Part shown: piece by piece, positions 3,741-42,800 of the stretch
Layout: every line of letters starts with the position of its first letter
Position numbering within the stretch: the first letter of the stretch is position 1
Assembly: GCA_051294905.1 (NCBI GenBank)
Contig: CM119372.1
Span: forward strand, 17,734,001 to 17,798,000
DNA from: Botryllus schlosseri
Lineage: Eukaryota
Reading direction: 5' to 3'
Length of the DNA stretch: 64,000 nucleotides
Notes under the pieces: model-generated
What the model was told of the DNA's origin: nothing
The model's input: the letters and a program-made list of their open reading frames with translations, nothing else
Database searches by the model: none
Made by a program: the position numbers and the translations under genes

Positions 3741-4614
3741 TGGTATATCACCCTGGGGGGGGGGGGGTGACGAAGCGCTGTTTCGGCCCTGAGTTAAGGT
3801 AAACCTAGCCTGAGCTGTCGTGAGATCAATGAAGCACTTTCTAATCACAAGGAGTTGGGAGCAGATTGTTTCTGGTGAAAGTATGGAATGCGATATGCTT
3901 CGGCTCGTGTAAATACAAAGAATGTACAAAAACGCTCTTTCATGCTAATCTAATTTTTAGACTGTCCTTATTTTTGGGTCCATGTCGATGGCAACCCTGG
4001 TAATAGCTAAACATAGCAGTCCACTAACATGGTTACTATGGTAGATTATATTTAGATATTCAGTCGTTATAGGAATTTTGTTGTGGTGCGATATGTAATG
4101 TATGTTATTTCTTATTTATACCAATACCAAGTTCTATACATAGGCTACCCAACGTTGTACGCATAACCAGTAAGATATGGAGAATGATTAATTTCTCCAG
4201 TCGCTGTTAAATCTTAGCTACGGCGTCAGTATATTATTATGCTGTGATCGTAATTAGGCTTGTATTGGGAACGTAACTATTCGCTTTCGTACTCTTACGC
4301 CGATATGTAGTCTAGCAAGTTCGCCATAATTTTCTAGGACGCAATATGTTACAATATAACTCATTTCTAAAATTACCGCGAGGGCCAATCACAACCTTCT
4401 GGTCGGGTGCATGTGGTCCACGGGCCTCGGGTTGGCTACCCTGCTGTAGGCTATTCTCGTCTCTGAACTTGCACAAAAGTGTATAAATAAACGAACATCT
4501 GGTTGGATTTATTGATAAAACATTATAATTCAGCCGATATCACTATCGGTGAAAAATGCTCACGCAGGATGAGATTTTACGATGTAGCGCTTAGATATCA
4601 CCTTCGTCATTTAT

Positions 4615-5310: not shown

Positions 5311-5562
5311 TTCAAGTTGAAATGATAAGTATAGATTCTATATATTTTTAATTGCTGTAACATGGAGAAGAGGATACCGATCTCAATTTTTCATACCGGC
5401 CATTTAAAATTTTCTCAAGTAAAAATGAGTTTCGTATTGGCCCAGATATGCTTCCTTTCTTCAATGACATCGCCACGATCACAGATGCGGCGGTTTCGGA
5501 GATAGGCCAGTCTGGGGATTTTTTTCCAGGTAGGCTACTTCATACCTTTTGTCGTTCTTTTG

Positions 5563-8021: not shown

Positions 8022-9315
8022 CAGGGCCGTAACAGCACTTCGCCAGGCCCCCAAAACGTTGATCCTGGGCCCCCCATAGGGTGACAAACCTAACTTCTGG
8101 GGGGCTTCGCCCCCCGGACCCCCCTCAAGCTGTACGTTTTTGCCGCTGCTTTTCATCTATATTGGGTGTCCGTTGGGTGAGTCAGTTTTTATCGAATAGA
8201 AAAATTTCTATAATTCATGACTGATTCGAGCAATATGATCAGGAATTGCATATATATTGCTATCAATTTTTATCCTTTCTCTGCTCACGTAATCAGATTT
8301 ACCGGTAGAGCAGAGTGAGGTGTGTTTGAAAGGGTAGGACCACTCAATAATAAATAAACATCTCCGGGTGTATTGTATACCCGTTGGAAGGAACGAAACA
8401 GCACTTCGTCATAGGCCCCACAAAACTGGAGTCTTGAGCTCCCATAGGGTGACAAACAGACCCGCCAGGCCGCCACTACGTTGTTCACTTTGCCACGAAA
8501 TTATAGATGTATTGCGTAGTAAGCCAGCGCGAAGCGCGAAAATTTTCGATTATTCAAGATAAAATCGGTCAATAAGATCGGGAATTGCATATATATTGCT
8601 ATCATGCAATTTCTTGTCCTCTATACTCAGTTGCTCGCGTAATCAGATTTACCGGTAGAGCTGAGTCAGGTGTTGTCTTGGAAAATGTAGAGCCCGTAAA
8701 TAATAATTAAACATCTTCGGGCAGGTGGACCCGTTGGTATGACTTCGTTACATGATGTTATTTCGTGACCTCCTGTCTGCTATATCAAAAATATATAATC
8801 GCCCAAACGTACTAAACTAAAAGATCTCTCGATTTCAAATTGGTATTTATTCACTGACATATAATTTTTCCCTGCGGGGTGGTATTTGTCTTGTGAGGTT
8901 CATGGACTATTAAACCCACATGTATTTTGTATATATAACGAAGTTTTCGGTCAGCATAAGGGCAGTCCTTTTCGGCCAAGGTTTTCTCGCTGCCGATCGT
9001 TCTGGCACACTTCTTGCAGTCGCATGTTACATGGCCTAAAACTTTATACGTCTTGGTGCGTCGTGGCGAGGTAATGGCCGACGCTGATATGCCCATTTCT
9101 ATAAATCTTGCGTATTTTTTCTTGTGGGAAGAGTACCCAATATTCGAGATACTTGACAACTTGAAATCGCGCGCAGCGCGTAAAATTTTTGATAAAGTTG
9201 CTCAAATTTTCAAAAAGTACTCTATAATTTATGCTAATTCGCGAAATAATTTTGGGCCCCCTTCGAGCTCGGCCCCCCCCATTGGGGGGTTTGGGGTGCG
9301 GCAGTTACGGCCCTG
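8022..9315. mobile_element. Non-autonomous hAT element (Tip100-like termini)
   Basis: TIRs CAGGGCCGTAAC...GTTACGGCCCTG. Perfect TSD CCTACAAT (8014-8021 / 9316-9323). Internal duplication (about 8235-8385 vs 8575-8735). Confidence 0.9.
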
Positions 9316-13218: not shown

Positions 13219-14723
13219 TACGGCAGGGGTGGGCAAACTACGGCCCGCGGGCCGCATGCGGCCCGCAACACCGTTCTGTGCGGCCCGCGAGAGTCTAAAG
13301 ATACTTTTTTAAAATATTGATAAAATATATACTAAATATCGAATTCATGTAGGGACTTGATTAAACTTTTTCTTAGTATATTTCACCATTATAATTTTAC
13401 GACAATGGTTACCAAACTGGGGTGCACCCCCTCCTTGGGGGTGTGAAGGCATCTAAAGGGGGCGCGAAGCTGAGCTCAATTGAAAAAATTTTCGCGCTCC
13501 GCGCGATTGTAATCCAATTCATAATCATTGCTCTGTATTTAGTATGAATTTCATAGTTAGCGTAACCTTCCATGCCATCAAACTATCCGTTAGGTTTGCG
13601 TTTCACCATCATATCGGGGGCTTAACAAGTTTGAGAACCACTGTTCTAAGGTAAATACTTCCTATTATAACTTTTATGTTTAATTTCTTGCGCGACAGCT
13701 CGATCTCAAGGCCCACACAGTTTGAGAGGTTTCAACTGCTAAACATCACAGAAATCCTAAACGAGATTGACATAACCCGGATCACGAGTGGGATTTCAGA
13801 TTGGCCACTACAGTTTTAATTATCTCAGTGATGTGCTTATAAAAACGATTTGCGCGTGTCTTAGGTAGATTCGCTCTCGGTATACGTAGAATTGGGGTAT
13901 CTATATTTTATCTACACATAGTAGAAGTGTGTTTGAAGCTGACATGGTTATGATGCTGTCAGCATTGTGTGTCCTGGAACTGAGCCAAAAGTGGAAATTG
14001 TAAATCTATGAACAGATTGCTGCTCACAGACTTAAATTTCAATCCGGTTCTAACCGACTTTCATCTCTATAGTTTTGACAAATTGGTTATTGAGGTCAAC
14101 CAGCCGATGAAATCTCGCCACTATATGTTCTGACGCGAGTACGATATCATCAAAGCAATGTTTCGTTTGTTTTAAATAACCACATATATTATCTCCATGT
14201 CCTCACTATATTATCAAATACCAATATTGCGTTTTGGTTTATAATCCTAATTTTATATAGTGCGGCCCGCGAATGGATTTAGATGTTGAATGCGGCCCGC
14301 GAGCTCAAAAGTTTGCCCACCCCTGGGCTACGGGGAAGCGAGTGGCGCAGTGTGCTAAGCGAGCGGTCACGACACCAATGGTTCTTGGTTCGAGTCTCGG
14401 CTCTACCATGTTTCTATGTGTCGGAGGTTATCTGGGCTCCTCATCGCCGATCCCACTGTACTAACAGTGTGTTGAAAAGCCCAGACACGGAGCAAGCCAC
14501 GCTCTCATAAAGTCGGCAGCTGAGACCCGAAGACGGACGCATGCAAGAGAAAGAGTGAAAGAGTGAATGCGCTGAGTGAAAGTCGTCCAACGAAGCAATG
14601 CATGATGTTGAAGATACTGACTGTACGATGAATCTGAACTGTACTATGAAACTGAACTGTACCTATATCTGTGTCGTGGCGCACAAGGCCTAAACGGCAA
14701 TACCCGTGCAATAATAATAATAA
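13219..14723 (+). mobile_element. tRNA-derived SINE with (AAT)n tail, interrupted near its 5' end by a MITE
   Basis: A box TGGCGCAGTG and B box GGTTCGAGTC at about 14343-14396. (AAT)n tail at 14710-14726. 13-bp TSD TAACTGGTCCGGC (13206-13218 / 14724-14736). Confidence 0.8.
13224..14325. mobile_element. hAT-Charlie MITE
   Basis: TIRs CAGGGGTGGGCAAAC...GTTTGCCCACCCCTG. Perfect TSD GGCTACGG. Contains another MITE at 13403-13643. Confidence 0.9.
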
Positions 14724-15800: not shown

Positions 15801-17986
15801 CAGTGTTGGGATGACTCGAGTCATGACTTGACTCGAGTCTGACTCGAGTCACCTTTTTCATATGACTTGACTTGACTCGAGTCACTTTGGCAAAATGACT
15901 TGACTTGACTCGGCGCTTTAGAAATGTGGATTGACTCGTGACTCGAAGCAAAATTCACGAGTCAATTTCGAGTCATCAAGTAAACGTTGTCGGTTAAATC
16001 TCTGCATCTTGTGTATGTTCGGATTGTTCGCGATACGCCGGTGTCACTTGTGAAAGCAACCAGTCATTCACTGATAGTACGTTTCACTGATCCTCCATTG
16101 TTATATGACAAACAAATTGACGGCAAACGAAATTATCACAGCTTACGTTGCCGTAGTAGTAGTAGATTAATCTAGTAGTAACGTATCTCTGTTTCTTAGA
16201 CGGCTCAGTGGCCAGTGCTAACATTGCGCATAGCGCTCACATTTACCAATCCTCTTGTATGATTTAAATCAGGGGTCGCCAACTCAAAATGGGTCGCGGG
16301 CCACTTTTCCAAATTCCTGGAGACCGCGGGCCGCATGACATCAATATCGATATAAAAGTAGGCAACGCAGTTCAACAACCACGTCTGATAACTCTACGTT
16401 ATTACAACGCTGTGCTTTCTAACATAGGCGACGGTTATAGTCACCACAAAAGAACTAATATTTTATTGAACAAACACAAATACAACAAAAAGTATCATGA
16501 TCATCAATGTCATTATATTTTGGACTATGAGCTGTACACGATACCTGACAATGACAACACTCTTTAGCCGCTAAAACAGGGGTGGCCAACATTTTTGTAA
16601 TTCACGGCCGCATTTCGCGTACTCATGTAGCCTGCGGCCGCATACCGGTGGTTAGTCGTGATAAACTAACTGGGGCCAAATACCCACGTTATCATGTCCA
16701 TGTCCATTGCCGGTACACTCCGAACTAATCTATATGCACATATCGGCTTACTATGCGCACCAAATCGTTAGTAGTTATGTTGTAAAGAGCCACAGAGAAC
16801 CAATCTGTAGTCGCGCGAAGCGCGAAAATTTTTTCCATGTTCATGAGTGAATTTCGTCAATAAATATTAGTATAGTTTCACATATTACTATTAAATATTT
16901 ATCCTTTCTCGGCCAATGTGATCAGATTCCCAGATACAGCTGATGCAGGGGGTATCTGCGAAAACTTAGGGTTGTTATTACAAGTGTCGACAGCCGCATA
17001 ATTTTCCTTCTACTGCTGCAGATTGGCCACCCATGGATTGAAGAATCAATATTGGGGTTAGCTATACACGGTAGGCCTACTTGCTAGACAACTATCTCCT
17101 CGTGAAAGCATGGTCTTTTGGAGCGCCCGAAGTCGTTTTGCAGGCGTCTCGGTCTTGGCAGTGGTGGGCCATTGCACGTCAAGGCAATATGCCCATTCGT
17201 ACCAGCAAATTCTTCATCCATGGAATGATATTACCATGCCGAAGCCGTATCAACTAGTGAGTAATAGTGATAGTGGGCACATAGAATGGCTCACTTTGAA
17301 AAACAACAACATTATGTTTCAATTGAAATCAATTTTAGCGTTTCAACATGATTTACTAAGCGTTTGTCTGAATTTTTTCAAATCAGGCCGCGGGCCGCAA
17401 AATAGGACCTCGCGGGCCGCATGCGGCCCGCGGGCCGCGTGTTGGAGACCCCTGATTTAAATCGAACGAATATAGTTTATGCGTTTATATTCTCACGGAT
17501 GTGTGGATGGTTGGGTATAGTGTATTGTACGATATCAATTTGTTCCAACTTTTCGAGGCTTCGTATTCGATCCTCAATTTTGGATGATAATAACAGACTA
17601 TAACATGTAGCTATACAGTTATTCACCTATTTTATCAGCACTTCTACGTGTGCGTGAGTGGTACAACGTCTTTTTGCATGTATTTAACTTCATATTCGTA
17701 AATTGAATCAAGATAAATGGCCAATTAATCTGTCTTTGATGGAGCGAGCAAAATGTAATCGCTCTGAATCATCACTCATACTTCGAAAATTCACTATGAC
17801 TTGAATTGTGACTTGACTCATGACTTGACTTGACATGACTTGACTCGAGTCACCTCCAAAAAACGAGTGACTTGACTTGACTCGAGTCACCTTCGAAAAT
17901 CGATTGACTTGACTTGACTCGAGTCAAAATGTGCAATGACTCGAGATGACTCGTGACTCGAAGGTAGTGACTTGATCCCAACACTG
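15801..17986. mobile_element. hAT MITE with GACTCGAGTC repeats, hosting nested Charlie MITEs
   Basis: TIRs CAGTGTTGGGAT...ATCCCAACACTG. Perfect TSD CTTACTAA. Confidence 0.9.
16270..17454. mobile_element. Nested hAT-Charlie MITE
   Basis: TIRs CAGGGGTCGCCAAC...GTTGGAGACCCCTG. Perfect TSD ATTTAAAT. Contains another element at about 16577-17035. Confidence 0.9.
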
Positions 17987-20331: not shown

Positions 20332-22626
20332 TCAAGTCTTGAAGAAACCGGTAGGAGCTGTATCCACGACATCTACAAAGAGCCTCACTTCGTCTGCGCC
20401 CAGCGAAGGCTGAGCTACATCCTTCGATAAATCCTCGGCGAGCTCTTTCGCTTCTCCGTTTGAAAAGTCTCCGCGTATCGCCAACAACGCCTTCAGCTGG
20501 TCCGCGCTAACGTCGCTGTACTTTGTGACCAACCCCGACAGTTCCAGCGACATCATGCTCTTGTCCTGCAGCTTTATGACTTCGGCGATCGGAATCAAGA
20601 CTTCGCACGGTGACCGTAGATGCGAAGATGCCAGGCGACTAAAAAACGCACTCAGCAGCTCCCGTTCTTTTAACAGCTTTTCGCCTGCACGTTTTCGTTC
20701 CTCGCCTGAACCAAACTTAATCCTCCTGCCCAGTGCGCCCTTCAAGTACTGTACGACGACTCTACGCTCGGCCTCCGCCATTATCCACGAAAAGTATTCG
20801 GGACGCAAGTGTACGAAATCGTTGTAGTAATCTTCTATTGTGACGCAGATTGTTTCGACGATACTCTCATCGTTCAGCCACTGTTTCGTCAGCAGGTTGT
20901 CGCAGTGGATCTGCAAGTCGGTGAAGACTTCATCTAAAAGAAACCCGCACGTCGCCTCAGCAACGTGATTCATTTCAACACAGAATTTGTTAGTCTCATT
21001 CCCCTCTCCGTCAGTGTCTGCGAACGGATTTCCGGGATCGCGATCCATAAGATACAATTCGTTTACGCCGGATTGATCAGAGTCCTTCTTACCGCGATAA
21101 TCTTTCTCCATTTGCTGGGCGAATTCTATAAAAGCTTCACAGTTGTTTGCGATTGCGACCATGTACAACGGGTAGTACGGAGGTAGTTCTCGGTTGCGGA
21201 AATGTTCTTCTTTGTAACTAGTCACGGCTTCGCCGTAAGACCGCACGAAGTTCATCATCTCGCTAATGCAAACATCAAACACCTTCTTCTTTTGATCATC
21301 CGATATGGTTTCGGCAACTTGCATCGTCTGCTTAATCATCTGGAATAGAATGACAGGAAGCGAGGTCTTATGGTATCCATCCGCGTCTGTTTCGGGTTCC
21401 TCTTCCTTTCTCCAATCCTTTGAATCTTGCTGTAACGACTTCAATGTCCAGTCCGATATGTTCGTTCTTGTGGTGATGAAATAATTATCCATCAGTTTGT
21501 CGCTGACTTCATCATCCAACAGACTCGGCAGACGGTTGATGTCTAAATCAAGCTCAGGGCTGCCTAACAGTTCCGGGCTGGTGTAGCCGTTCAACCACGT
21601 CAACAGCGAGATGATCTCGTTGCCTTGAAGTCCTTCCCTAATGAGTTTTTGAAGGTGATTGGATATCGCTAGATGATACCAATGGACGTGCTGTTGAAAA
21701 ATGTTGTACGCCGGCGGGAAACAAGGTTGACAGAGGTTTTTAATCGTTTTGAGGTCGTTCAAGACCTCTTTGCGGATAATTTCAAGGTGACGAACGAGCC
21801 ACATTTTATCGTTTGCCCGTGTTTCGTAGACGTCGCTTTCTATACGTTCATCCACGGCGTCTTTTAATGTTTCCATAGCTTTGTCCCTCCATTGTTTAGG
21901 CCTACAAGGTGGTAGAAATCCTGAAAATCTTTCTTGCTCCTGCAGTTTTATATCAGTACGGTGTTCACGTTCGATAATCCTCAACGCCGTCACAAGCTCG
22001 GTCGTGTCTCTTCTCGCAACGTTCAAAGTATTTTTGAGTACGCGAAACAGCGCCTCGCCGAGTTCAGACGACAGTTTTTCCGCGTCTGCGAAAAACCTCT
22101 GCAGCTGCTTCATATCCGAGGAATTCCCAAGCTTGTGCTGTTCGTACAAAAGCTCATCTCTGGATGACTCCAAATCGATCAGGCACTTGTGAGCTTCCAG
22201 AAACTTACGGTCCCTCATCATGCCCCTGGCCTTTTCCACCTCTTCGGGGACGGCGAAAATGTGTTTCAAATTTTCCATCGCCGCAGCCAATTGACGGTGC
22301 TCCGCACTGACGTCTTTGATGTCTCGCATTTTGTCGCTTAAACTGCCACACGTGGCGTACATCTCGTCGACTTCTGTCATTCTTTTTTCCACATTTTTAA
22401 CTTCCTCTAACGCGTCTTTGAGCTGCGTCAAACCCGCCCGAACGCCGTCTAGTTGGGACTGGACTGCCGCTTTCAAACGTGCTTCGACTGAAGCTTTCTT
22501 TCTGGAAGTTCTTCTGCGGTACTGTTCCACCTTCTCCAATTGATCGGGTCTCATCAGGAGATTGGAAACATATTTTATCGCTTTCTTTTGGGCGTCGGCA
22601 TCAGCGTCATCTATAGACTCCATCAT
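20332..22626 (-). CDS. EXOC3: Exocyst complex component 3 (Sec6), 764 aa, single coding exon
   Basis: RPDQLEKVEQYRRR...KKASVEARLKAAVQSQLDGVRAGL, QLAAAMENLKHIFAVPE, KMWLVRHLE, EPETDADGYHKTSLPVILFQM and LELSGLVTKYSDV are Sec6 motifs. First ATG is at 22626 (the ORF track starts at an upstream TTG), preceded by an acceptor-like TTGTAGCAG. Confidence 0.96.
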   Translation of the reverse strand: MMESIDDADADAQKKAIKYVSNLLMRPDQLEKVEQYRRRTSRKKASVEARLKAAVQSQLDGVRAGLTQLKDALEEVKNVEKRMTEVDEMYATCGSLSDKMRDIKDVSAEHRQLAAAMENLKHIFAVPEEVEKARGMMRDRKFLEAHKCLIDLESSRDELLYEQHKLGNSSDMKQLQRFFADAEKLSSELGEALFRVLKNTLNVARRDTTELVTALRIIEREHRTDIKLQEQERFSGFLPPCRPKQWRDKAMETLKDAVDERIESDVYETRANDKMWLVRHLEIIRKEVLNDLKTIKNLCQPCFPPAYNIFQQHVHWYHLAISNHLQKLIREGLQGNEIISLLTWLNGYTSPELLGSPELDLDINRLPSLLDDEVSDKLMDNYFITTRTNISDWTLKSLQQDSKDWRKEEEPETDADGYHKTSLPVILFQMIKQTMQVAETISDDQKKKVFDVCISEMMNFVRSYGEAVTSYKEEHFRNRELPPYYPLYMVAIANNCEAFIEFAQQMEKDYRGKKDSDQSGVNELYLMDRDPGNPFADTDGEGNETNKFCVEMNHVAEATCGFLLDEVFTDLQIHCDNLLTKQWLNDESIVETICVTIEDYYNDFVHLRPEYFSWIMAEAERRVVVQYLKGALGRRIKFGSGEERKRAGEKLLKERELLSAFFSRLASSHLRSPCEVLIPIAEVIKLQDKSMMSLELSGLVTKYSDVSADQLKALLAIRGDFSNGEAKELAEDLSKDVAQPSLGADEVRLFVDVVDTAPTGFFKT

Positions 22627-23368
22627 TATGTCTGCTACAATATATTCAATTTTATAAAGAGGAGTTGGAGTTGACAAATTTTTGATGTGGAATTTGACAA
22701 CAATAGGACTAGAACTAAGTTAATATATATTGTTATTGATCTTCTACACCTTCTCATCTTCTATACTTCTACACCTTCCTATCTTTTCATTGTATCACAA
22801 TATTGTGGATTAAAATGATAATAAAATGCAACTGAACTAGATCAGAATCAAGCTTGACATAATGCTTCCTGCTTCGGGTGAGAAAAGAAATATTGAATGC
22901 TATTCATGAGCGTCACACCAGAAATAGCGATTAAGCGTGTCAACACTCCACTCAAACTTGCCCCACGTGCAGCAGTAATTGCATAAGCAGCCCTACATAT
23001 CCGTCTGGTCGTCCCTCGACTTGATTCATCTCAATGATGTCGCCGCGATACGATATGGACAACTGGACAAGTGGACATGGACAAATACATAACAACAAAT
23101 ATAGATAAATAAATATTATATCGATAAACAAATGTACCGCGAAAAATGAGTTACAGGTAGGACATACTGATGTCCGACTCAACCACTACATTTGTCGGTC
23201 ACCCAAACACTGTTATCATCATTCACAAGCTGCAAAAGTAAAACGCCTCGGTTAGAAATCGCTGAAGACGGGAAGACGGTGTTCACCAAAGTAATACTAA
23301 ACAGTTCTGATCCACTCAGTTGCGTCAGTATCGTTCGGGAGTCCGCTGTATGTAAATTGTAAATATCG

Positions 23369-23718
23369 TGGGGTTACCATATTTTGCTAACGAGAAAGAA
23401 GGACACTTTTTCAAAAATTTTCAAACTTACAATACCGATGGAAAATACTGAAAAATGGTATATTTTTCTACTACTTCGTAGTCGGTTGACTAAAAAAAAA
23501 GGTCGACTTTTCACTCAGCTCCCGAAATACCCGTCGGAGCGTCACTTCGGTACTGATTTACGGCATCTCAGTCGAATTTTGCTATGAATTTGACCAAAAT
23601 TCCTCAAAAAGAGGACAAAATCTCAAAAAGGAGGACATTTAGGCGTCCTCGGAGGACATTTTCAAAAACACGAAAAAGGAGGACAAATCCTCCTAAAGGA
23701 GGACGTATGGTAACCCTT
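23369..23718. mobile_element. hAT MITE (GGTTACCATA termini, AGGAC repeats) between divergent EXOC3 and TRIT1
   Basis: Ends TGGGGTTACCATA...TATGGTAACCCTT. Perfect TSD AAATATCG. Confidence 0.85.
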
Positions 23719-24126
23719 AAATATCGTTGATTCAGTCGTTCTATAAGTCAAATCAACGGTGGCAGTCCATCACAAAGAACAGAAATAATAATAAATTTAC
23801 AGATCTACTTATTCTAATAAGATTCAATTACCATCACGCCAAATTCGCCAAGTCGTCGATTCAGGAAAATGAATCAGAACTATAACCGTCCATTAGCAAA
23901 CTTGTATCACTTGTAAAAACAAAAACACATTTTATTGTACTATACGTTGCTGCAGTAACAATGTAGATTGTAGATGATGGAGTTTTGATTCATTTGTGTA
24001 TCTGGGGTATTTCCCAGGAAAGGTATTGAAATATCCTTCTTCTTCCTCGCGGCTCAATTTAATCCCAAAAGGGACGCAGGAATTGATGATGGGCTGTAGG
24101 TAGCAGAAAGTTTTGCGATCTACCGC

Positions 24127-27100
24127 ATGATTCGATCGCTGAGCAATTTGAGGTGGGTCACCTTTTATCGGCACTTGTCTTCATCGGATGCGATGGCCAG
24201 TTATCAATTCAATGACAAGCCTGTTCTGGTCGTCGTGGGCGCGACTGGAGCTGGGAAATCAAAGCTTGCCTTGGAATTGGGTCAAGTCTTGAATGGCGAA
24301 ATCGTTAGCGCCGATTCCATGCAGGTAAGTTTTCTCTATATACCTTTTATACACATAAATATGATGCACATGAATCAATATTTCTTCCAAGGTATACAAG
24401 GGCCTTGATATTGTCACGAACAAAGTTACCAAAGAAGAGCAGGAATCGTGCCCACATCACCTCATTGGCTTTCTGTCACCATTGCAGGAATATACTGTTG
24501 TTGATTTTCAGAAGCAAGCCAGAGATGTGGTTAGTATTATTCTCAATATTTTTGTGCTAACTCCAGAGACCACTGTGATTCTATTAGAATTTTTGGCGAA
24601 AATCGGTGATCGGGTGAATCATGGAAATTTACTCGGGTGTCATTACGTTTTGTGCTTTGGAAATTACATCGGCATATTCAGGAACCTCTTGCCATACTAT
24701 TTCTTGGTGATGTATTCAATAACAAATGCACGTAAACGACTGTTTTCGGGTGTAATTCCAGGTATTATGACGAAAAAACAATTTTAAGAAGACGAATAGA
24801 TACCTACTACACAGCCGTTTGACTGAATATTTTGCAGAGAAATCGTCAGAAATGTGTCGATGATAACGCTCAACAGACCATGTCTATCGACAATCCTTAG
24901 GTATAAATATATTTCGAAGAGTGCGGGAATGGTTTCACACAGGCGGTTGCTACGATAAATCATCATTCACCCGAATATATGATCACGACGAATAGTAGAA
25001 CACTCATTTAAAGGATTTAGGCTTCGGACTCTACAATCTACATATATCTCATTAAAATCGAATTGAAATCGGACATTTTCGAAATTTCGATAATCCGGAC
25101 ACAATTATGGCCCCAGATCGACCCTTGGGACGTCGACTTGAATAATAATTTTGGTATTGATGGAATCGGCTAGACTAGTAGAATCCATTTCAAAACGAAT
25201 TAGGCTTCGGACTCTACATATATCTCATTAGAATCGAATTGAAATCGGACGTTTTCGAAATTTCGATAATCCGGACACAATTATGGCCCTGATCGACCCT
25301 TGGGACGTCGACTTGAATAATAATTTTGGTATTGATGGAATCGGCTAGACTAGTAAAATTCATTTCAAAACGAATAATGCTTCGGACTCTACATATATCT
25401 CATTAGAATCGAATAGAAATCGGACATTTTCGAAATTTCGATAATCCGGACACAATCATGGCCCCAGATCGACCCTTGGGACGTCGACTTGAATGATAAT
25501 TTTGGTATTGATGGAATCGGCTAGACTAGTAGAATCCATTTCAAAACGAATTAAGCTTCGGACTCTACATATATCTCATTAGAATCGAATTGAAATCGGA
25601 CATTTTCGAAATTTCGAAAATCCGGACACAATTATGGCCCCAGATCAACCCTTGGGACGTCGACTTGAATAATAATTTTGGTATTGATGGAATCGGCTAG
25701 ACTAGTAGAATTCATTTCAAAACGAATTAGGCTTCGGACTCTACATATATCTCATTAGAATCGAATTGAAATCGGACATTTTCGAAATTTCGATAATCCG
25801 GACACAATTATGGCCCCAGATCGACCCTTGGGACGTCGACTTGAATAATAATTTTGATATTGATGGAATCGGCTAGACTAGTAGAATTCATTTCAAAACG
25901 AATTAGGCTTCGGACTTTACATATATCTCATTAGAATCGAATTGAAATCGGACATTTTCGAAATTTCGATAATCCGGACACAATTATGGCCCCAGATCGA
26001 CCCTTGGGACGTCGACTTGAATAATAATTTTGGTCTCGATAGAAGCGGCTCGATTAGTAGAATTCATTTCAAAACGAATTAGGCTTCGGACTCTACATAT
26101 ATCTCATTAGAATCGAATTGAAATCGGACGTTTTCGAAATTTCGATAATCCGGACACAATCATGGCCCCAGATCGACCCTTGGGACGTCGACTTGAATAA
26201 TAATTTTGGTATTGATGGAATCGGCTAAACTAGTAGAATCCATTTCAAAACGAATTAGGTTTCGGACTCATGAAACATAGATCCATAAATCGCGTAACAT
26301 TGCATTATGCATTATCCTTGCTGTGCCGCACTGTTGTAAAAGGGGCCTCAAACAATGTATCCCTCGGTGTTGGGATGACTCGAGTCATGACTTGACTAGA
26401 GTCAGACTCGAGTCACCTTTTTCGTATGACTGAGCCCCCATTGTTTTCTCACAAATAAATTGACCGCAATCGAAGTGATCGTGTATATACGTATATGTGA
26501 GCGATACAGCGCCTTCTTGCATGTACATTTAACTCTATATTCGTTGATCGGTTCGGAATCAATGACCACTAAATCTGTATTTTAGACAGCTCGCAAAATG
26601 CAATGACGTAATCATGCCTCATACTTGGAAAAGGCAATTTGACTTGAATTGTGACTTGACTCGTGACTTGACTTGACTTGACTCGACTTGACTCGAGTCA
26701 CTTCCAAAAATCGATTGACTTGACTCGACTCGAGTCACTTTTGAAAATCAATTGACTTGACTCGACTCGAGTCGAAATGTGTAATGACTCGAAATGACTC
26801 GCATGACTCGAAGGTGGTGACTTGATCCCAACACTGGTTCCATTTCCAATTAACCGGTGCCTACCGCGCGGGCTGGAGATCTCGCATCAATTTAGATGCG
26901 CCCTCCACTCCTGACTGCACTCAACTTTGCGACTCTGACTGACGACTCGCTCCGGCTACCGTCTCTCATGTGAGTGAAATTGTGATTTCGACTCTGAAGT
27001 CTGAAACCGACTCCCTAATGGCAAAAAATGTACGCAATTCTCTGCTTCAGTTACACGACCCCCGCGTTGCCCCAAGCATTGCTGTCAATAGTTCTTCTTC

Positions 27101-30100
27101 GATAACAGTGGTTCTCAAACTGGGGGTGCACCCCCTTTGCAGGCGTCAAATCATATGAAGGGGGTCGAAGCCATTTGAGAGAAATTACACTGGTCAACAC
27201 ATATTTTTAGGCAGACAAAGTAAGAGTGGTTTTGGGGGTTCTGAAGGGCACTGATTCCGAATATGACCTTAGTGTTTTCAAATTGGCTCTTGTTGTGGAG
27301 ATAACCCATGGGGCTATTTTGACCAAAATCTCCCATTTACGCGGTAATGACTGGATATAAAATCGGCTTAGTCGTACTATAAAGTTTAGAAATTCAGTCT
27401 ACTAGTTATTTTTACAAACAAAAGACTATTTTAAATCAAAATACAGCAACAGCACTATATTTAGGGGTATTAAATTTATTACAATTAAATACTTTCACGG
27501 GATATCATGAACATAAATAAACTCCAGTCATGTATATAAGTAATTAAGTATTTACGTAGATACTCGAATAACGTGGCATTAGTTCAATCAGTTTGACGTC
27601 AACCACTTATTGTAAATTTGAAATAATCAGTTGGAATACAATATTATTGATGTATGTTAAATCGAAATTGTGTTTTGTACGATTTTCGCCAGTAGGCTAT
27701 TTAGTGCAGTTTTTCGAAAGGTTCCGGCAATGGTCTGACATAATATGTTTAATGGTTAATATCATCTGCCCTGGCATCTTTCTTTTGTTGTTCTGATGTC
27801 TTGTTAGAACCTCTACCCTTACTAAACAACAAGATGATCGGGAAATATACCAAGATGACTGAACAGGAAGTGAATGTTTATGCTCATGTTTGTTTCAAGT
27901 TTTCGATATGCAGTTACGAATTTTCGGACCAACTGTTTGTAGTTCGGTGCTTTGTGATCAGCTAAAAAGTATTATTTACTACATCTTAGGAGAATGTACA
28001 TGCTGTGAACTCCTCCTAATGTGAAATTGGAATCTTTCATCGGTATTCGAATATACCAGATACCAGATTTAAGCTTCTCGTTTGATAGGGTTACTAGGAA
28101 TACCCACTTTGTTGATTCAGTGGGCGGAAACGCTCAGGGGGCGAAATGGGGGGCGCTGGGCTCAGGGGGGCGATAAGGGGCGCTGAAGAAAAATGGCTTC
28201 GCCGTAGATGATGTGGTAGTAGGACATATCCTTAATGAGTATTCAGAACTAATTAACATCCAACAAAACATGTCTAATCCCGAAATTTTTGGTCGCGCTG
28301 CGCGACGATGTTTGATATATATGTTTTCATAAATATAGTGGGTTATTATAATTCATATAAAACGAATTGCGCGTACTTTTAGATCGCCAATTAAATCGTC
28401 TGAAAGAGTACGCATAATTATAGAAAATAGAAATAGGCATTTCGGCGTCGGCCATTATCACGCCACGATGCACGAAGACATATGAAGTTCCGGTGAATAT
28501 GGGACTCCGAGAAGTGTGTCAAAAGATCGTTAGCAAGAAAACCGTAACCGAAGAGGATTGCCCTTGTTGAGCGTAAACTTCGACGCATATAAGTCCAATT
28601 ATCCATAGGTAATTAAATCACTCGTGCCGAACTATCATGTCGTCGCATTCTGCTCCCCACAGGACAAATAACATCCATCAGAGAAAATTATTTGTCAGTG
28701 ACGAAACGCCACTTTTGAATCGAGTGCTTACTTTTGTTTTACACATTTATGCGTTTCAATAAATTTTGACTATATAGCGGACAATAGGTAACAAAATAAC
28801 ATGTAACGATTTAATTGTACCAACGGGCACGCCCGAATATGTTCAATGACTAATTACGTGGCCTTCATTTTCCAATACAACAGCTCATTCAGCGCTACTG
28901 GTAAATCTGATTACGTGGGCTGAGAGGATAAAAAGTTCATAGTTACATATATATGCAATTACAACCTGGCTCCTAGGGCGACCAGGCTGACCTTTGCTGA
29001 CCATCTAAATCACGCGACGGGGTTCTTGCGGGCCAAGCCCTCAGGAGTTTGGTTTCTCACGTTATGGGTGCCCAAGACAATCGTTTTTAGGGGGGCTGAC
29101 GAAGTGCTGTTACGGCCGTCCCTCTCACTCATTGTCATTATCACAGTCCTTACAATATGAGGTGGGGGCGCTGGAGCACAATAATGTTTGAAAGGGGGCG
29201 CTGGAGGAAAAAAGGTTAAGAACCACTGGTCTAGCCGATTCCATCAATACCAAAATTATGATTCTAGCCGACGTCCCAAGGGTCAAACGGGGGCCATAAT
29301 CATGTCCGGATTACCGAAATTTCGAAAATGTCCGATTTTAATTCGATTCTAATGAGATATATGTAGAGTCCGAAGCCTAATTCGTTTTGAAATGAATACT
29401 ACTAGTCTAGCCGATTCCATCAATACCAAAATTATTATTCAAGTCGACGTCCCAAGGGTCGAACTGGGGCCAAAATTGTGTCCGGAATACCGAAATTTCG
29501 AAAATGTCCGATTTTAATTCGATTCTAATGAGATATATGTAGAGTCCGAAGCCTGATTCGTTTCGAAATGGATTCTACTAGTCTAGCCGATTCCATCAAT
29601 ACCAAAAATTATTATTCAAGTCGACGTCCCAAGGGTCGATCTGGGGCCATAATTGTGTCCGGATTATCGAAATTTCGAAAATGTCCGATTTCAATTCGAT
29701 TCTAATGAGATATATGTAAAGTCCGAAGCCTAATTCGTTTTGAAATGGATTCTACTAATCTGGCCGCTTCTATCGAGACCAAAATTATTATTCAAGTCGA
29801 CGTCCCAAGGGTCGATCTGGGGCCATAATTGTGTCCGGATTATCAAAATTTCGAAAATGTCCGATTTCAATTCGATTCTAATGAGATATATGTAGAGTCC
29901 GAAGCCTAATTCGTTTTGAAATGAATACTACTAGTCTAGCCGATTCCATCAATACCAAAATTATTATTCAAGTCGACGTCCCAAGGGTCGAACTGGGGCC
30001 ATAATTGTGTCCGGATTATCAAAATTTCGAAAATGTCCGATTTCAATTCGATTCTAATGAGATATATGTAGAGTCCGAAGCCTAATTCGTTTTGAAATGA

Positions 30101-33100
30101 ATACTACTAGTCTAGCCGATTCCATCAATACCAAAATTATTATTCAAGTCGACGTCCCAAGGGTCGAACTGGGGCCATAATTGTGTCCGGATTATCGAAA
30201 TTTCGAAAATGTCCGATTTCAATTCGATTCTAATGAGATATATGTAGAGTCCGAAGCCTAATTCGTTTTGAAATGAATACTACTAGTCTAGCCGATTCCA
30301 TCAATACCAAAATTATTATTCAAGTCGACGTCCCAAGGGTCGAACTGGGGCCAAAATTGTGTCCGGAATACCGAAATTTCGAAAATGTCCGATTTTAATT
30401 CGATTCTAATGAGATATATGTAGAGTCCGAAGCCTAATTCGTTTTGAAATGAATACTACTAGTCTAGCCGATTCCATCAATACCAAAATTATTATTCAAG
30501 TCGACGTCCCAAGGGTCGAACTGGGGCCATAATTGTGTCCGGATTATCGAAATTTCGAAAATGTCCGATTTCAATTCGATTCTAATGAGATAAATGTAGA
30601 GTCCGAAGCCTAATTCGTTTTGAAATGAATTTTACTAGTCTAGCCGATTCCATCAATACCAAAATTGTTATTCAAGTCGACGTCCCAAGGGTCGATCTGG
30701 GGCCATAATTGTGTCCGGATTATCGAAATTTCGAAAATGTCCGATTTCAATTCGATTCTAATGAGATATATGTAAAGTCCAAAGCCTAATTCGTTTTGAA
30801 ATGGATTCTACTAATCTGGCCGCTTCTATCGAGACCAAAATTATTATTCAAGTCGACGTCCCAAGGGTCGATCTGGGGCCATAATTGTGTCCGGATTATC
30901 AAAATTTCGAAAATGTCCAATTTCAATTCGATTCTAATGAGATATATGTAGAGTCCGGAGCGTAATTCTTTTTGAAATGGATTTTACTAGTCTAGTCGAT
31001 TCCATCAATACCAAAATTATTATTCAAGTCGACGTCCCAAGGGTCGATCTGGGGCCATAATTGTGTCCGGATTATCAAAATTTCGAAAATGTCCAATTTC
31101 AATTCGATTCTAATGAGATATATGTAGAGTCCGGAGCGTAATTCTTTTTGAAATGGATTGTACTAGTCTAGTCGATTCCATCAATACCAAAATTATTATT
31201 CAAGTCGACGTCCCAAGGGTCGATCTGGGGCCATAATTGTGTCCGGATTATCAAAATTTCGAAAATGTCCGATTTCAATTCGATTCTAATGAGATATATG
31301 TAGAGTCCGAAGCCTAATTCGATTTGAAATGAATACTACTAGTCTAGCCGATTCCATCAATACCAAAATTATTATTCAAGTCGACGTCCCAAGGGTCGAA
31401 CTGGGGCCAAAATTGTGTCCGGAATACCGAAATTTCGAAAATGTCCGATTTTTATTCGATTCTAATGAGATATATATAGAGTCCGAAGCCTAATTCGTTT
31501 CGAAATGGATTCGACTAGTCTAGCCGATTCCATCAATACCAAAATTATTATTCAAGTCGACGTCCCAAGGGTCGAACTGGGGCCATAATTGTGTCCGGAT
31601 TATCAAGATTTCGAAAATGTCTGATTTCAAATCGATTCTAATGAGATATATGTAGAGCCCGAAGCCTAATTCGTTTTGAAATGGATTTTACTAATCTGGC
31701 CGCTTCTATCGAGACCAAAATTATTATTCAAGTCGACGTCCCAATGGTCGATCTGGGGCCATAATTGTGTCCGGATTATCAAAATTTCGAAAATGTCAGA
31801 TTTCAATTCGATTCTAATGAGATATATGTAGAGTCCGAAGCCTAATTCGTTTTGAAATGAATTCTACTAATCTGGCCGCTTCTATCGAGACCAAAATTAT
31901 TATTCAAGTCGACGTCCCAAGGGTCGATCTGGGGCCATAATTGTGTCCGGATTATCGAAATTTCGAAAATGTCCAATTTCAATTCGATTCTAATGAGAAA
32001 TATGTAGAGTCCGGAGCGTAATTCTTTTTGAAATGGATTGTACTAGTCTAGTCGATTCCATCAATACCAAAATTATTATTCAAGTCGACGTCCCAAGGGT
32101 CGATCTGGGGTCATAATTGTGTCCGGATTATCAAAATTTCGAAAATGTCCGATTTCAATTCGATTCTAATGAGATATATGTAGAGTCCGAAGCCTAATTC
32201 GTTTTGAAATGGATTTACTAGTCTCGCCGCTTCTATCGAGACCAAAATTATTATTCAAGTCGACGTCCCAAGGGTCGAACTGTGGCCATAAGTGTGTCCG
32301 GATTATCAAAATTTCGAAAATGTCCGATTTCAATTCGATTCTAATGAGATATATGTAGAGTCCGAATCCTTTAAATAAGTGTTCTACTATTCGTGGTGAT
32401 CATATATTCGGGTAAATGATGATTCTTCGTAGCAACCGCCTGTGTGAAACCATTCCCGCACTCTTCGAAATATATTTATACCTAAGGATTGTCGATAGAC
32501 ATGGTCTGTTGAGCGTTATCATCGACACATTTCTGACGATTTTTCTGCAAAATATTCAGTCAAACGGCTGTGTAGTAGGTATCTATTCGTCTTCTTAAAA
32601 TTGTTTTTTCGTCATAATACCTGGAGTTACACCCGAAAACAGTCGTTTACGTGCATTTGTCATTGAATGCATCACCAAGAAATAGTATGGCAAGAGGTTC
32701 CTGAATATGCAAATGTTATTTCCAAAGTACAAAACGTAATGACACCCGAGTATATTTCCATGATTCACCCGATCACCGATTTTCGCCAAAAATTCTAATA
32801 GAATCACAGTGGTCTCCAGAGGTGGTCAGTAACGAAGTAGACCTACTTCTAATTTTTTGGAGTATACTTGAGTAGTTTTCCACTGCTTGTAGTATTTACT
32901 CAGGTAAATCTAATTTTCTGCTGCTTCTATATGCTTCATGATTTCGTGATTTAGCTACTGTCTTTTCGCTATTTTCGGTTTGTCAAGCATAAGTATTATA
33001 CTACTTCTATCAGAGGAATGACTGTTTTCACAGAGTACCAACAAGAATTTAATTTTTACAAAAGTATATATGGAGTGACAAATATGTTTTCTTGAAAGTA

Positions 33101-36100
33101 TCGGTGAATATAATTTAGGTAGCGGGTTGCGTGGTTCCGTTCACACCGTATTGTTGCCTATATCACATGTTTCATCACATGCAGTAGAATGGCTCATCAA
33201 AACATTTGGAACTACCATTTTGCTATCTACGATCTACCTATTGTAGCGTAATCTAGCAGCATGGTGTGTCCTAATCCGGAAAAGTGGTCTCTGACTTTTT
33301 TGAGCGTTTGACCTGCTTTAGCAGACCACATTTGAAGCTTTCTGGAAAATAACATAAGATGTATATTTCCGCTTTTTAGAAATAGTAATTGTATTTCTCT
33401 TTTATTTCTCAGTATCATTACTTTGAGTTCTTCTAATTTATTCCATTTTTTTTTTCTGGCGAACATACATGTTGATTGGTCGTAGTTCTGTCTATCTGTC
33501 AGAGGAGGATGTCTACTTTCCTCCAGGAACTCCTGGACCCAGAAACACATTGCCATTTGGCCGATATATTACAACGAATTGGCACAAAAAAATAAATCGG
33601 CTCTTCAATCGAATACAAGTCTTAACACAGCAAGAACTTCACACAAAAACTTCCCAAGACTCCGACAATTCACTTCCCATTTCTCTATCTGCACGATACA
33701 CTGCATCCATGACTGGTCTTGCTAACCAGATATTCCGGAGTCATGCCCCCTGAGCGGAGCCGGGCGGTTACGCACAAGTATAGTATTGCCTCTATAAGAT
33801 CACCGTATATGACATTTTTACGATGCACCATATTTTTTATTAGCATATACGAATCGAGCAAAGTGATAGCACCCTGTCAGATACAACTTCTCCGTATTGC
33901 TCTTCGTCTAAACTATGGGCCATATAATACGGGGGAGTGCGCCATACCATGAATTTTGTTTAACAGGGTGTTTGAGAAAACAAATTATTAGAATCGCTTT
34001 TCTATAGAAAAAGTATAATTTACATTCCATGCTGCGGTCGAATGTTAATGCTGTCGAAAATTTCTGTATCCTGGGATGTATCAATATGAATCAAGCTCTT
34101 CTGTATAGCTCAATTTGCGGTTTTTGTCAGTCCATGCGAATGTATTGTGACTGTTTCCACAACTACTTACTTACTGTAGTAGATTTAAAGCCTAGAAAGT
34201 GCCAATTCGACTTCTACCACTTCGTAGTTGAGTTGACGTTTTGTGTCCGTGCTTTAGCTGCTGCTTAAGTAGCTTTCTTGACTACATTGATGACCTCTGG
34301 TTCACTCTTCACTCCCTGCGTGACTACTAAACATAGAATACGTGTCTAGTGCCTACCGTCGTATATGTGCCAAAATTAAGCTTCATTATCTGTATGTGAG
34401 CATAGGAATTGACCTGCGTACAATATTTGCTATCAGATCAACGACATCCATTCGCGCAGCAAGTTACCGATAGTTTGTGGCGGGACTTCATACTACATCG
34501 AATCAATATTATGGGAGTATTTGACTTCAAATGCAAGTACTACCGATGACGAATCATTGCTGAAATCCAAGCCAGAGGCAAATAATATCAGGCAGGTGAG
34601 TCTGTAACAGTTTCTATTACCGTACATCAATGATGTTCATCTCATTTTGCTTCAAATTAGCATTAAGTAACAACGTATTCCTCAACTGTCTACCAAAAAA
34701 TCAAAAACCATTACTTCTATATGAGCTGGCATTTGCGCTATGACATGACCGTTTACTAGAATCAGCGTATCGCTGTGCTCTGTTCACTGTATTAATTACA
34801 CTGAATTTAGATATTGTATGCTATCTAAAATCAGGGATATCTAGATATCTGTCTAAAATCATCCACCGTATCTCGGTGGTTACACCTACAGATCAGGGTG
34901 GCTGGTTTGATTTTCGCAGGCTGTCCCTCAGGATCAATTCACGGGCAAGCAAAACTAGTTTCGGTCCCAAACCCGAGCAGGAAGGGCATCCAACCTAAAA
35001 ACTTAGACCATATCACTGAGCAGTGAGCTGACTTGGCAACTCCACACATGGGAGAAATAGAAATAAGCTAATGTGTATGCCGCATTATAGTATGCATATT
35101 TCCAACCAAATTTATCGAACTGCCGTCAAATGCTTGAAGGAGAATCTAAAATATTTTAATCAAGTATGTCTGCTGGAAAACGGCTGTCATCGAAAGCAAA
35201 CAGATTGAGTAACATACAGCCTACTTGAGAATCGTATTTTGACTACTTTAACTAGCAATGCATTCTTTCTCAGGACTTGGAAGCAATGAGCTCATCAGAA
35301 TTATACGAGATGCTTGAGAAAAACGATCCGGTACGCGCTTCTCGGCTTCATCCGTGCGACAGAAGAAAGGTCATGAGGTCGGTGGAGGTTGGTATTGACA
35401 GTGCTATTTGGAAGTTTGAAATAAATACGCTCTATACAACTCTGAAATATTTTTAATTTCTGCAGATTTTTCTTCAAAGCGGTGTCAAGCACAGTGATTT
35501 GTTACTCTCGCAAGCCGGTGAACGAAGATACGGCGGTCCCTTGCTTTTTCGCAATATCTGCTTTTTATGGGTGCAGTGTGATGAAAATGGTGAGTGAAAT
35601 TACAGCAGAGCAGAATTGAGCACCATCCGATTCCAAGTTGACCATCACCCATTGCGTCAGCATCGTTAGCATTCAAGTTCTTTCTATAAACATTCCCATA
35701 GGTTGTCCTCAAGTTGTAGGAAATGAAGGTGAAACTTTTCACAGGCTATTAGGAACATTATGCCCAACTCATAGTCATAATCAATGTTCCCTCTAAGCTG
35801 CGCTGACAAAGTCTTCGCGCACAGAAAAATGTGTGTCGCGCACAAAAAAATCCACATATGGTTCGAAAAAGATTATCACTATATCTTTTCGCAGAAGGCA
35901 CTGATGATCATCAGTCCAAATTGACGCGCAATGGCTGGTAGTCAAAATCAAATTGTTCACGGTATTCTTGCAATATTCAGTTTTACACGAACGAGTCAAT
36001 AAACGTGTGGACAAAATGCTAGCAGCTGGATTGCTGACAGAATTACAAGATTTCCACAAGGAATATAACAAAAACAGGTATTCTATTGTAACCCTCAAAC

Positions 36101-39862: not shown

Positions 39863-42800
39863 TCAGGCGTCTTCATCTTCCACCAATGCCCACGCCTCTT
39901 CAGCCAAAATGAAGTATTTGCTAGCGAGTCTTCCTTTCATGGACGCGGTGGCTTCTTCGGCAGCTTGATTGTACAGTTCGCCTGCGCAAGTAATTACTTG
40001 AATAGGTGACTGGCGGTTCTAAACTAGAATATGGCTTTCAAGAGTACATTCATTGCTGTGTACTTTATCAAATCGGAGACTTTTCGTGTGCCCAGTAACA
40101 AGAGGTAACTGCACAGTGCATAATGACAAGCATATGAACATAGATTCAAACGAAAACTAATTTGCCAGCAAGTAAGAGAAAGTCAGCTGTACCAGAAACT
40201 ATGCGGTATTCGTAGCAAATACACGGAGAGTTGTTAAACAAACAGTATTAATGAAAAATCTTAAGGTAGTAAAGGAACTCCTTCTGTCGACACACTTGAG
40301 TACGGCCACTGGAGAAGTGGATTTCATATTTTTGAGTCCTATCCCAGATTTGAGATTCAAATTAAGAATAAATTTCATATCACGGCTAGGGGATGGGCAA
40401 AATCAAGTACCTAAGTCATTTAATTCTGAATAGAGTATTAGCCTGCGAGTCGCTTCGAGTATCACGCATTATGACATCAGTAGGAATGATGCAGAAGGTT
40501 CAAATACGTACCTTTTGCGATCACAAAGAATATAATGCCAGTTCTACGTCACGTATGAAATATAATATATTTTCAGACCATACCTATTTCATTGCACTTT
40601 GTGACACTGAAAATGTGGGCTGATCACGGCTTAACAGATATGTCATTTCCACTAATGTGCGTACTGCGTAGCCTACTACATGTTTTATAAGCGGCGATAT
40701 GACCAATCGAGGTTTCAAGGCTGCCACAGAGCAAGATAATATTGAAACTACAATTCTCATTTACAAATAACTCTCAGTGGCTGGCAGCGTATAATTGCAG
40801 TACTCGAAAAAATCATTTCACAGTCCCACTACTAGACTCGAATCGTTACAATTAATGCTAGACTCGCTTCCGCGCACTCGAATCATTGTGTCCACTGTCC
40901 ATCGAGCTCTAATGGTGACCACGTTCAAAGTAATATCCCAAATCTCTTCAAAAGTCGCATGAATTAGATATCAGTAGGCCGATTGTTTTTGACATGTCAA
41001 AATAAGTCAAAATTTTGTCAAAATTGAAGCGTCAGGTCAAAAAATTGTCAAAATTGTTTACAAAGTCAAAACTTTTTTGACCCCTCCGTTTCGTTTGTAT
41101 CGTAGATTTTGCACTGTCAGTGAACTTATCATTTGATATTTTACATCTTGTAGCCTACTTTATAGCCTACCGTTGTAGACGGCCCATTGTCTGCTCATTG
41201 TGAATCATAAACGGTCAAATGAAACAAACTGGTTGACATGGTGTTATGTACCGCAACATCCTGACTGAAGCAAGAATGCTTGGGCATTGCATGGTTCTTA
41301 TAGCAAGCAGCGCATGATGAAAAATTGTGATGTAGACAACATTGCCAAAAAGAAGCAACACAGTGTGTCACCAGCTGTGTACGCACAACTTCAGTGTTGT
41401 CACCCAACAACTGCTGTTGTTGAACGTTCTTTCTCCATTCTTGGCAAACTATTTAGTAACACAGGACAGACACTTTCTACCCGAGAATGTAGGAAAGTAT
41501 CTTTCGTTGTACTGCAACAAATTTTAATTATTCCTACATTAATAAGTGGTGTAACCACTGGAATTCTTCATAGCGCCCGATTTCGTTAAAATACAGTTTT
41601 TCCATGGAAAAATTTGTCACTTCTCAAGTCAAGAACGTTTTTATTAGGTCTAACTACTTCATAAGGACAGACACTTCCAACCAGAAATGAAGATAAGTAG
41701 TACAATTTTAACATTATGTGCGAAAACACCTAATTTGCATACACGAGGTCAAAATTTGGTCAAACTTTATTTTTTTTAGGAAAAAAATGTCAAAATTAAG
41801 CTTTTTAGGTGCAAATCTTTTGTTTTTTAGGTAAAAAATTCGCCCTAGTTATCAGTTATTGAAGTTATCAGAAATTTCATGTCGAAATCAAATTCCGGCT
41901 TCAAAATAATCGTAAATCCTTATTCAAATCCGGCAAAACTCATCAAATCCCTTTTTTCCGTTACGTCAAAGTGACTCACCAGCCATGTTCGGATCCGGTT
42001 CGATTCCGTTTCCTCCTCTGAGGCGAATCTCAGCGATGGCAGCGAGGACTTGATATTTCGGAGCCAGCCTCGAGGTGACCGAGTCGTAGCCTCCCTCCGC
42101 GTCGGCGTCTTCGCATTTGGCCAGCAGCGTCTCGTACCAGTGAACAGCCGAAGCGTAATTGATGTCCCTGATGAAGGGAAATCGTTTCAAATGCTGACCA
42201 AAAGAGGGAATTCTCGACTTGGTAAGAGTAGAGGAGCCAAGCGGGCGACTAAATTCTGCATTTGCGAAAATTAAAAAACAGCGATCAGTTTAACGAAATA
42301 TATTGTTCACGCCATTTTAAGATTTGAGCAATAGGGAGTGTTGTGAACCTTACCTAATTCCCTGAACTGAAACCTGATAATACCTTTGTGAGTCGTATAA
42401 TTTGTCGTGTGAACGTAGATAACGAAATATGAAATCGTACGACGTTGGGTTCATTTCAAGATATACGTGTGTAATACCACGGAGAGACATTGATGTATAC
42501 ATTCATGATTATTAGCTGGTTCGGAAGTTGATATACATTCATGATTATTAGCTGGTTCGGAAGTCGATAGACATTCATAAGTACTTCGCCAATTGCGAGA
42601 AATATATATTGCATTTTGAACCGTACGTGACATTCAATAAAGTTACAAGTCGGGGAGACGGAAACAAAATATATTCGTCAGTGTGATCCATCGAATATGT
42701 GTGCAATAGACAGGCTTCGTGGTACTTCAGCCAACAAGGTCGTACGGCGTGTACGCCGGTCGTCGAACGGAAGAAGAAACACGCAGCGAATTGTAAACGC

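Follow-up and report, generated by a model that had tools for sequence, protein, structure and literature searches.

Foldback transposons of insects and nematodes are the closest described counterparts of the element analysed here, an 8.2-kb foldback within intron 2 of the gene TRIT1 in a 64,000-nucleotide stretch of the Botryllus schlosseri genome (assembly GCA_051294905.1, contig CM119372.1, positions 17,734,001 to 17,798,000, forward strand; hereafter the window, in whose own numbering all positions are given). Tetris of Drosophila virilis is composed of an outer domain, a ~220-bp array and a variable non-coding middle; it makes 8-10-bp duplications, has no known autonomous copy, has seeded satellite arrays, and its units outnumber its outer domain (PMC4079207). 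In Tribolium, the inverted ends of Rehavkus-1_TC contain units of 164 bp, in most cases 5 and 8 per end (PMC10218199), Rehavkus-3_TC carries from 6-8 up to 50 units per end, and a Rehavkus unit has expanded into arrays of up to 80.5 kb (bioRxiv 10.1101/2024.12.02.626372). Muta1 of Aedes aegypti, a type 2 foldback among the Mutator-like elements (MULEs), makes 8 or 9-bp duplications and ends in a 10-bp imperfect palindrome, and more subterminal repeats give it stronger binding and excision (PMC5499845). Tm1 of root-knot nematodes has composite inverted ends, nested insertions and 8-10-bp duplications, and is mostly non-autonomous (PMC3169594). Across MULEs the duplications are 8-11 bp long, with Rehavkus, found in arthropods and annelids, tabulated at 9 bp (PMC6446971); Repbase places Rehavkus in MuDR, and assigns non-autonomous families from the length of their duplication and bases 1-11 of their termini (PMC4455052). 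Satellites derived from transposons are covered by a review (PMC12628747).

The Botryllus element is very probably a non-autonomous foldback of the cut-and-paste kind, moved in trans, probably by an enzyme of the Mutator/Rehavkus type. By analogy it appears to work like a Rehavkus or Tetris foldback, and the build itself is already published in beetles and flies. It resembles Tribolium Rehavkus in that its inverted ends are long and contain satellite-sized units, subterminal and variable in number, and differs in containing no transposase, in a duplication of probably 8 rather than 9 bp and in its chordate host, the likeness being one of structure alone. It shares with Tetris three-part arms, a probable duplication in the 8-10-bp range and units apparently commoner than the outer domain. 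Unlike the Tetris unit, which is ~70% A+T and shares 37 bp with its outer domain, the unit here is 176 bp long, 37.5% G+C and CpG-rich and shows no such match, and no paired inner domain is left (PMC4079207). A short imperfect terminal palindrome and subterminal tandem repeats that are unequal between the ends of a non-autonomous copy recall Muta1; however, the Muta1 repeats are 12 bp long and lie beside the terminus, whereas those here are 176 bp long and lie ~420 bp inward (PMC5499845), so a binding-site function is not transferable by analogy. Composite inverted ends and nested insertions are likewise features of Tm1, as are 8-10-bp duplications, a range that includes the length favoured here, and empty sites have been shown for it; Tm1 differs in its mostly 9-bp duplications and in having a known copy with a Phantom-like transposase (PMC3169594).

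No paper on ascidian foldbacks or on this satellite was found in a literature search that covered few subscription journals. A foldback element was reportedly described in Ciona by Simmen and Bird in 2000, and for that reason we make no claim to the first ascidian case.

Arms, arrays and middle of the element

The element spans 24569-32813 and is flanked on both sides by CTCCAGAG, which occurs at two sites only in the window, 24561 and 32814. ACCACTGTG, unique in the window at 24569, and CACAGTGGT, unique at 32805-32813, each directly adjoin a CTCCAGAG copy. The arms, ~1.7 kb on the left and ~3.6 kb on the right, are inverted and 93-97% alike, and their outer parts (24561-25017 and 32365-32821) are 96% complementary, with 14 differences in an alignment of 449 bp. 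The original prediction, made from the letters of the window, of an 8.2-kb foldback inside TRIT1 intron 2 is confirmed in its inverted arms, its arrays and its terminal direct repeat. It had described each arm as ~450 bp of unique sequence followed by an array; the modular build stands, and the non-repetitive outer domain is shorter, ~420 bp, with unit-like sequence already present from ~24990.

Tandem Repeats Finder calls two arrays of period 176 in opposite orientation with 94-95% matches, one at 25037-26269 with 7.0 copies and one at 29225-32370 with 17.9 copies, in agreement with the 7 left and ~18 right copies first counted. CpG observed/expected in the unit is 1.6. The unit had been called palindrome-rich, which holds to a modest degree for six-base palindromes, of which the unit tested has 9 where 3.9 is the average (15 of 2000 shuffles reach 9), and fails for four- and eight-base palindromes, which are not enriched (matched by 117 and 176 of 2000 shuffles, respectively). 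The epithet nucleosome-length finds no backing beyond the number itself: in a crude spectral test on one unit, a ~10-bp AA/TT/TA rhythm is absent, power at 10.35 bp being below the mean. Dinucleotide power at 9.8 bp is 1.5 times the mean, and both periods fall outside the top 8.

Variants common to both arms are present among 23 aligned full units. Mirror homogenisation of the arrays was considered and rejected, since the average difference is 12.2 letters between units at mirror positions and 10.0 across all left-right pairs. CpG-driven decay was rejected as well, with transitions at 6 of 22 CpG sites and at 12 of 45 other C/G sites, showing no bias. Within the right array, units six apart are unusually alike (7.2 differences; reached by 14 of 10000 shuffles at that lag and by 112 of 10000 when any lag from 2 to 9 is allowed), and this likeness points to a possible block duplication.

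Between the arrays lies a middle of ~3 kb that reads as hAT debris with no detectable transposase. Specifically, 26365-26836 matches the hAT-type element at 15801-17986 in three blocks (95% over 65 bp, 79% over 58 bp and 81% over 354 bp), 27106-29228 includes degraded fragments that match the hAT-type element at 8022-9315 at 70-82%, and neither is flanked by an exact duplication. There is no open reading frame (ORF) of more than 78 amino acids wholly inside the element; none of 54 stop-to-stop pieces of at least 35 amino acids from the middle and the left outer arm matches Pfam at E 0.05, and Rfam gives 0 matches over 24500-29600. These searches bear out the view that no transposase lies inside. 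Because a hAT end abuts the right array in mid-unit, at 29228, a hAT-linked deletion would have taken the inner end of the right arm and part of an older middle.

Public runs, the target site and the length of its duplication

Contigs from four of 22 public runs (X1, X5, X14 and X16) were compared with 23400-25160, which includes the left junction; a bridge across the junction requires 31 letters, and the summed contig depths used below are not copy numbers. Depth rises at the left terminus in all four runs, and median arm depth exceeds flank depth ~340-fold in X1 and 87-fold in X16. In the same two runs unit depth is ~40 times arm depth, against 12.5 units per arm in the window copy. The depths show a repeat family, and the unit excess hints at longer or free arrays. 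The element had been portrayed as a vehicle that spreads a satellite, a role shown in Tetris and Tribolium Rehavkus; here it is plausible, and the ratio of 40 to 12.5 is the hint of it. Metagenome contigs searched for exact terminus and unit patterns gave 0 matches.

At nine listed arm positions, six have a private letter in the left arm and the common letter in the right, and three have a minority letter common to both arms; thus the window copy appears young, not brand new, and both its outer domains would come from one subfamily. X1 and X5 contigs that match the terminus at 83-90% cease to match at 24705, and a joint of 24705 to 24818 is found in X1 and X16. We read the break at 24705 as the mark of a related subfamily whose outer domain is different.

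One X16 contig bears directly on the target site. With 597 letters and full single-copy depth (99.7), it matches 24117-24568 and carries 145 further letters unlike the element, the side on which these lie being deduced by comparison with the depth bins that the X14 exon contig occupies. X16 derives from another study, and the contig is probably an empty allele, the element apparently being absent from another animal. The original prediction had asked for an empty site in other individuals; what is seen is a contig that leaves the window exactly at 24568, from which we infer the empty site. An X1 contig (24359-24594), which differs from the window at two exon sites, enters the arm by 26 letters. 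The element had also been called mobile, and arm depth and the departing contig support a mobile, multi-copy element; its further placing inside genes, in the plural, stands on one insertion.

CTCCAGAG is near-palindromic, and when the terminus is shifted outward the empty site remains the same; the duplication could therefore be 8, 6, 4 or 2 bp long, with the element starting ACC, GACC (duplication TCCAGA), AGACC or GAGACC, respectively. Direct repeats of 3, 5, 7 and 9 bp fit none of the symmetric starts from 24563 to 24572. Depth in the terminus bin implies 11.2 covered positions in X16, 10.7 in X14 and 11.1 in X5, where 11 corresponds to a start at 24569. The first 11 bp of the left outer arm form an imperfect palindrome (4 of 5 pairs), which fits a start at 24569 only among six starts tried (background 2%). 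Furthermore, given at least 100 like ends, a 2-bp duplication is unlikely in view of where the X1 junction contig stops, in a test that assumes 31-letter words and random flanks. An 8-bp duplication is favoured, not proven; the direct repeat said to bound the element is present, and its length is ambiguous at this near-palindromic site (8 favoured; 6, 4 or 2 possible). With 8 bp the terminus is ACC, two of whose three bases are G or C, at a single site; in a survey, the first three bases of most arthropod MULE ends are G/C-rich (PMC13359780).

Arms, array, target duplication and signs of mobility fit the foldback-type DNA transposon class, and membership of that class is supported.

Superfamily, proposed mechanism and competing accounts

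Within that class, MULE/Rehavkus is favoured because MULE duplications are 8-11 bp long and most foldbacks are held to be Mutator-type. On this likeness of anatomy we regard the assignment as moderately probable, with a considerable share of the probability left to other superfamilies. The earlier label of unassigned superfamily is apt in that no transposase has been identified, and is qualified by an anatomy that points to MULE/Rehavkus. The element is not filed as Rehavkus, whose 9-bp duplication is absent here. MULEs are further marked by a DDE transposase and the Rehavkus group by a PHD-finger transposase, and this copy has no detectable coding part.

In the mechanism that we propose, a transposase made elsewhere in the genome would have bound both long inverted ends, and the element was inserted 31 bases into TRIT1 intron 2 by a staggered cut, the duplicated 8 bases of which can be seen at its flanks. 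The 176-bp units are part of the terminal repeats; their number, which differs between the arms, may change separately in each by unequal exchange or slippage, and the units may add transposase binding sites, by analogy with Muta1. The middle has lost a transposase or never had one, and the inner end of the right arm was probably removed in the hAT-linked deletion.

Several observations weigh against this account. No transposase is tied to the ends of the element, and no odd duplication length fits, the 9 bp of Rehavkus included. Depth in X1 implies 8.7 covered positions and a start at 24571, from which one X1 contig also aligns; one X5 contig aligns from 24567, which suits a 4- or 6-bp duplication, and the junction-contig test cannot tell 8 bp from 6 bp. 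The 26 letters by which the X1 contig crosses the junction fall below the 31-letter bridge threshold, and the empty site is deduced from the extent of the X16 match rather than from the sequence of the 145 further letters. Summed depth gives no copy number, and no second complete copy has been read. In addition, the unit is not significantly similar either to the outer arm, where 499 of 500 shuffles reach the score, or to the 45 bases at the terminus, where 559 of 1000 do. Nothing therefore suggests that the unit is a repeated terminal binding site, and that idea was rejected.

Among other accounts, the one that survives best, though we think it rather less probable than not, is that the locus is composite. 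Here the arms would not form one unit with this middle, hAT activity having replaced another middle or host DNA having been captured. The pieces of the middle are 70-82% identical to window copies, against 97% between the arms, the hAT pieces lack exact duplications, and the right array breaks off inside a unit where it meets a hAT end. However, both ends share one duplication, so the arms were inserted together, and variable middles are normal in foldbacks (PMC4079207). Moreover, a composite origin concerns the middle alone and is compatible with a foldback moved in trans.

Terminal bases bear on the choice of superfamily. hAT ends are short and start with CAG or TAG, as do those of the window's own hAT elements. 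P elements start with CA and encode a THAP transposase, Merlin elements start with GG, Polintons start with AG and make a 6-bp duplication, and Transib and CACTA elements start with CAC and make 2-5-bp duplications. It is possible, if unlikely, that the foldback was moved by another superfamily with 8-bp duplications (P/Galileo, Zisupton, Merlin or an atypical hAT) or by an undescribed one. Foldback structure is known also from the P superfamily (PMC5499845), Galileo included, the target is similar to the palindromes into which local hATs have inserted, such as ACCTAGAG, and the duplication is 8 bp long against the 9 bp tabulated for Rehavkus. Set against this, the element has an ACC terminus, as opposed to the short ends of all eight hAT-type elements with 8-bp duplications (one mismatch allowed) that were found in the window with a CAG/TAG filter, which detects no other starts. 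Membership of hAT was rejected on this ACC start and on the kilobase-long arms, as contrasted with short CAG/TAG ends, and the statement that the termini are not those of the local hATs is upheld. P/Galileo was rejected since CA is not the start in any reading that leaves a direct repeat; the GG start of Merlin is likewise absent. Moreover, most foldbacks are said to be Mutator-type (PMC4079207).

Transib and EnSpm/CACTA were rejected on the flanks of the CAC start at 24571, which have no direct repeat at 2-5 bp, the 3-bp pair having one mismatch. It is very improbable that the element is a gene-less dependant of a Polinton/Maverick with a 6-bp duplication: the 6-bp reading TCCAGA is formally possible, and the junction test does not separate 6 from 8 bp, but in that reading the element starts with GACC, and the AG start goes with a 4-bp duplication, on which ground Polinton/Maverick was rejected. 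Least probable of all, to the point of being negligible, is an assembly artefact such as a satellite region that has been collapsed or inverted: arrays whose units are almost identical are difficult to assemble, no contig of the four runs bridges the whole element and unit numbers may be off, but the arms differ at 14 of 449 sites and bear different unit series, the target duplication sits exactly where another animal's contig departs, and an X1 contig extends 26 letters beyond the left junction.

Host gene, neighbouring sequence and significance

Exons 2 and 3 of TRIT1 match adjoining positions of the Pfam IPPT profile and flank the intron that holds the element (Table 1). Intron 2 (24530-34436; 9,907 bp; GT..AG; phase 0) is 83% element by length and measures 1,654 bp without the element and one duplication. 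In X14, exon 2 is covered as one block by a contig that then runs on unlike the intron, as would a spliced transcript. TRIT1 is most likely still functional, the element being spliced out with the intron. The frame of exon 2 is open for 85 codons beyond the donor (24530-24787, +), into the left arm, and unspliced TRIT1 transcripts would end within that arm.

Table 1. Coordinates of TRIT1 exons, parts of the foldback element and hAT-type elements in the window.
Feature	Position	Strand	Remarks
TRIT1 coding exon 1 (P-loop)	24193-24324	+	weak P-loop family matches in Pfam
TRIT1 coding exon 2	24392-24529	+	Pfam IPPT E 3.8e-15, profile 2-46
Left CTCCAGAG copy (8-bp reading)	24561-24568	+	31 bases after exon 2 donor; X16 contig departs at 24568
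Left outer arm domain, non-repetitive, ~420 bp	24569-24989	+	high depth in four runs
Left 176-bp array: diverged partial unit, then 7 units	24990-26269	+	
Sequence after left array, without match elsewhere in window	26270-26364	.	possibly an inner-domain remnant
Decayed, internally deleted hAT-type copy	26365-26836	.	
Spacer, no substantial match in window	26837-27105	.	
hAT-type element with CAGTGGTTCT ends	27106-29228	.	right end adjoins right array
Right 176-bp array, ~18 units, inner end truncated	29229-32392	-	
Right outer arm domain	32393-32813	-	
Right CTCCAGAG copy	32814-32821	+	
TRIT1 coding exon 3	34437-34595	+	Pfam IPPT E 6.7e-08, profile 48-82
hAT-type element	1524-3999		
hAT-type element	2234-3338		
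hAT-type element	8022-9315		
hAT-type element	13224-14325		
hAT-type element	15801-17986		
hAT-type element	16270-17454		
hAT-type element	50085-50671		
hAT-type element	59820-60160		

The last eight hAT-type elements of Table 1 have 8-bp duplications (one mismatch allowed), and two of them are nested in others; in five of the eight, positions 4-5 of the left duplication are TA. Upstream of TRIT1, 23400-23717 is the end of a very high-copy hAT-type element, with a summed depth in X16 of ~12,000 times the flank. At 23770-24154, also upstream, 13 of 207 letters of an X16 contig disagree with the window, which we read as high allelic divergence.

Two housekeeping-type genes in the window, each a single long ORF, are intronless, at 20332-22719 (-) and 61493-63109 (+): POLE2, whose best named matches are ascidian (Styela clava 60%, Phallusia mammillata 57%), and an ORF of 795 amino acids, which we take to be EXOC3/Sec6. 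TRIT1, beside these intronless ORF genes, does contain introns. CpG observed/expected is 1.10 in the window and 1.28 and 1.12 in the two intronless genes, showing no depletion. An ORF of 240 amino acids at 4615-5337 (-) presumably resembles thiopurine methyltransferase, and scattered exons at ~45885-59168 (-) are taken by us to resemble eEF2 kinase. A direct duplication of ~550 bp (42289-42858 and 44269-44802; 93%) contains a 36-bp tandem repeat in its first copy.

The role of foldbacks as satellite sources is documented in flies and beetles, and a clean ascidian case would extend this route to chordates. No new mechanism would be opened unless the transposase proves to be of an undescribed group. 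One bolder version, which we think improbable though worth stating, is that the locus represents a polymorphic chordate foldback lineage, with ends (ACC start, palindromic 8-bp target) that belong to an unclassified transposase group or to PHD-MULE-protease fusion enzymes, and with a 176-bp unit that has already escaped into arrays several times the length of these arms. If this were true, the birth of a satellite would be under way at the locus, and a housekeeping gene would have both filled and empty alleles. Filled and empty TRIT1 alleles could also show the effect of a kilobase-scale pre-mRNA hairpin on splicing.

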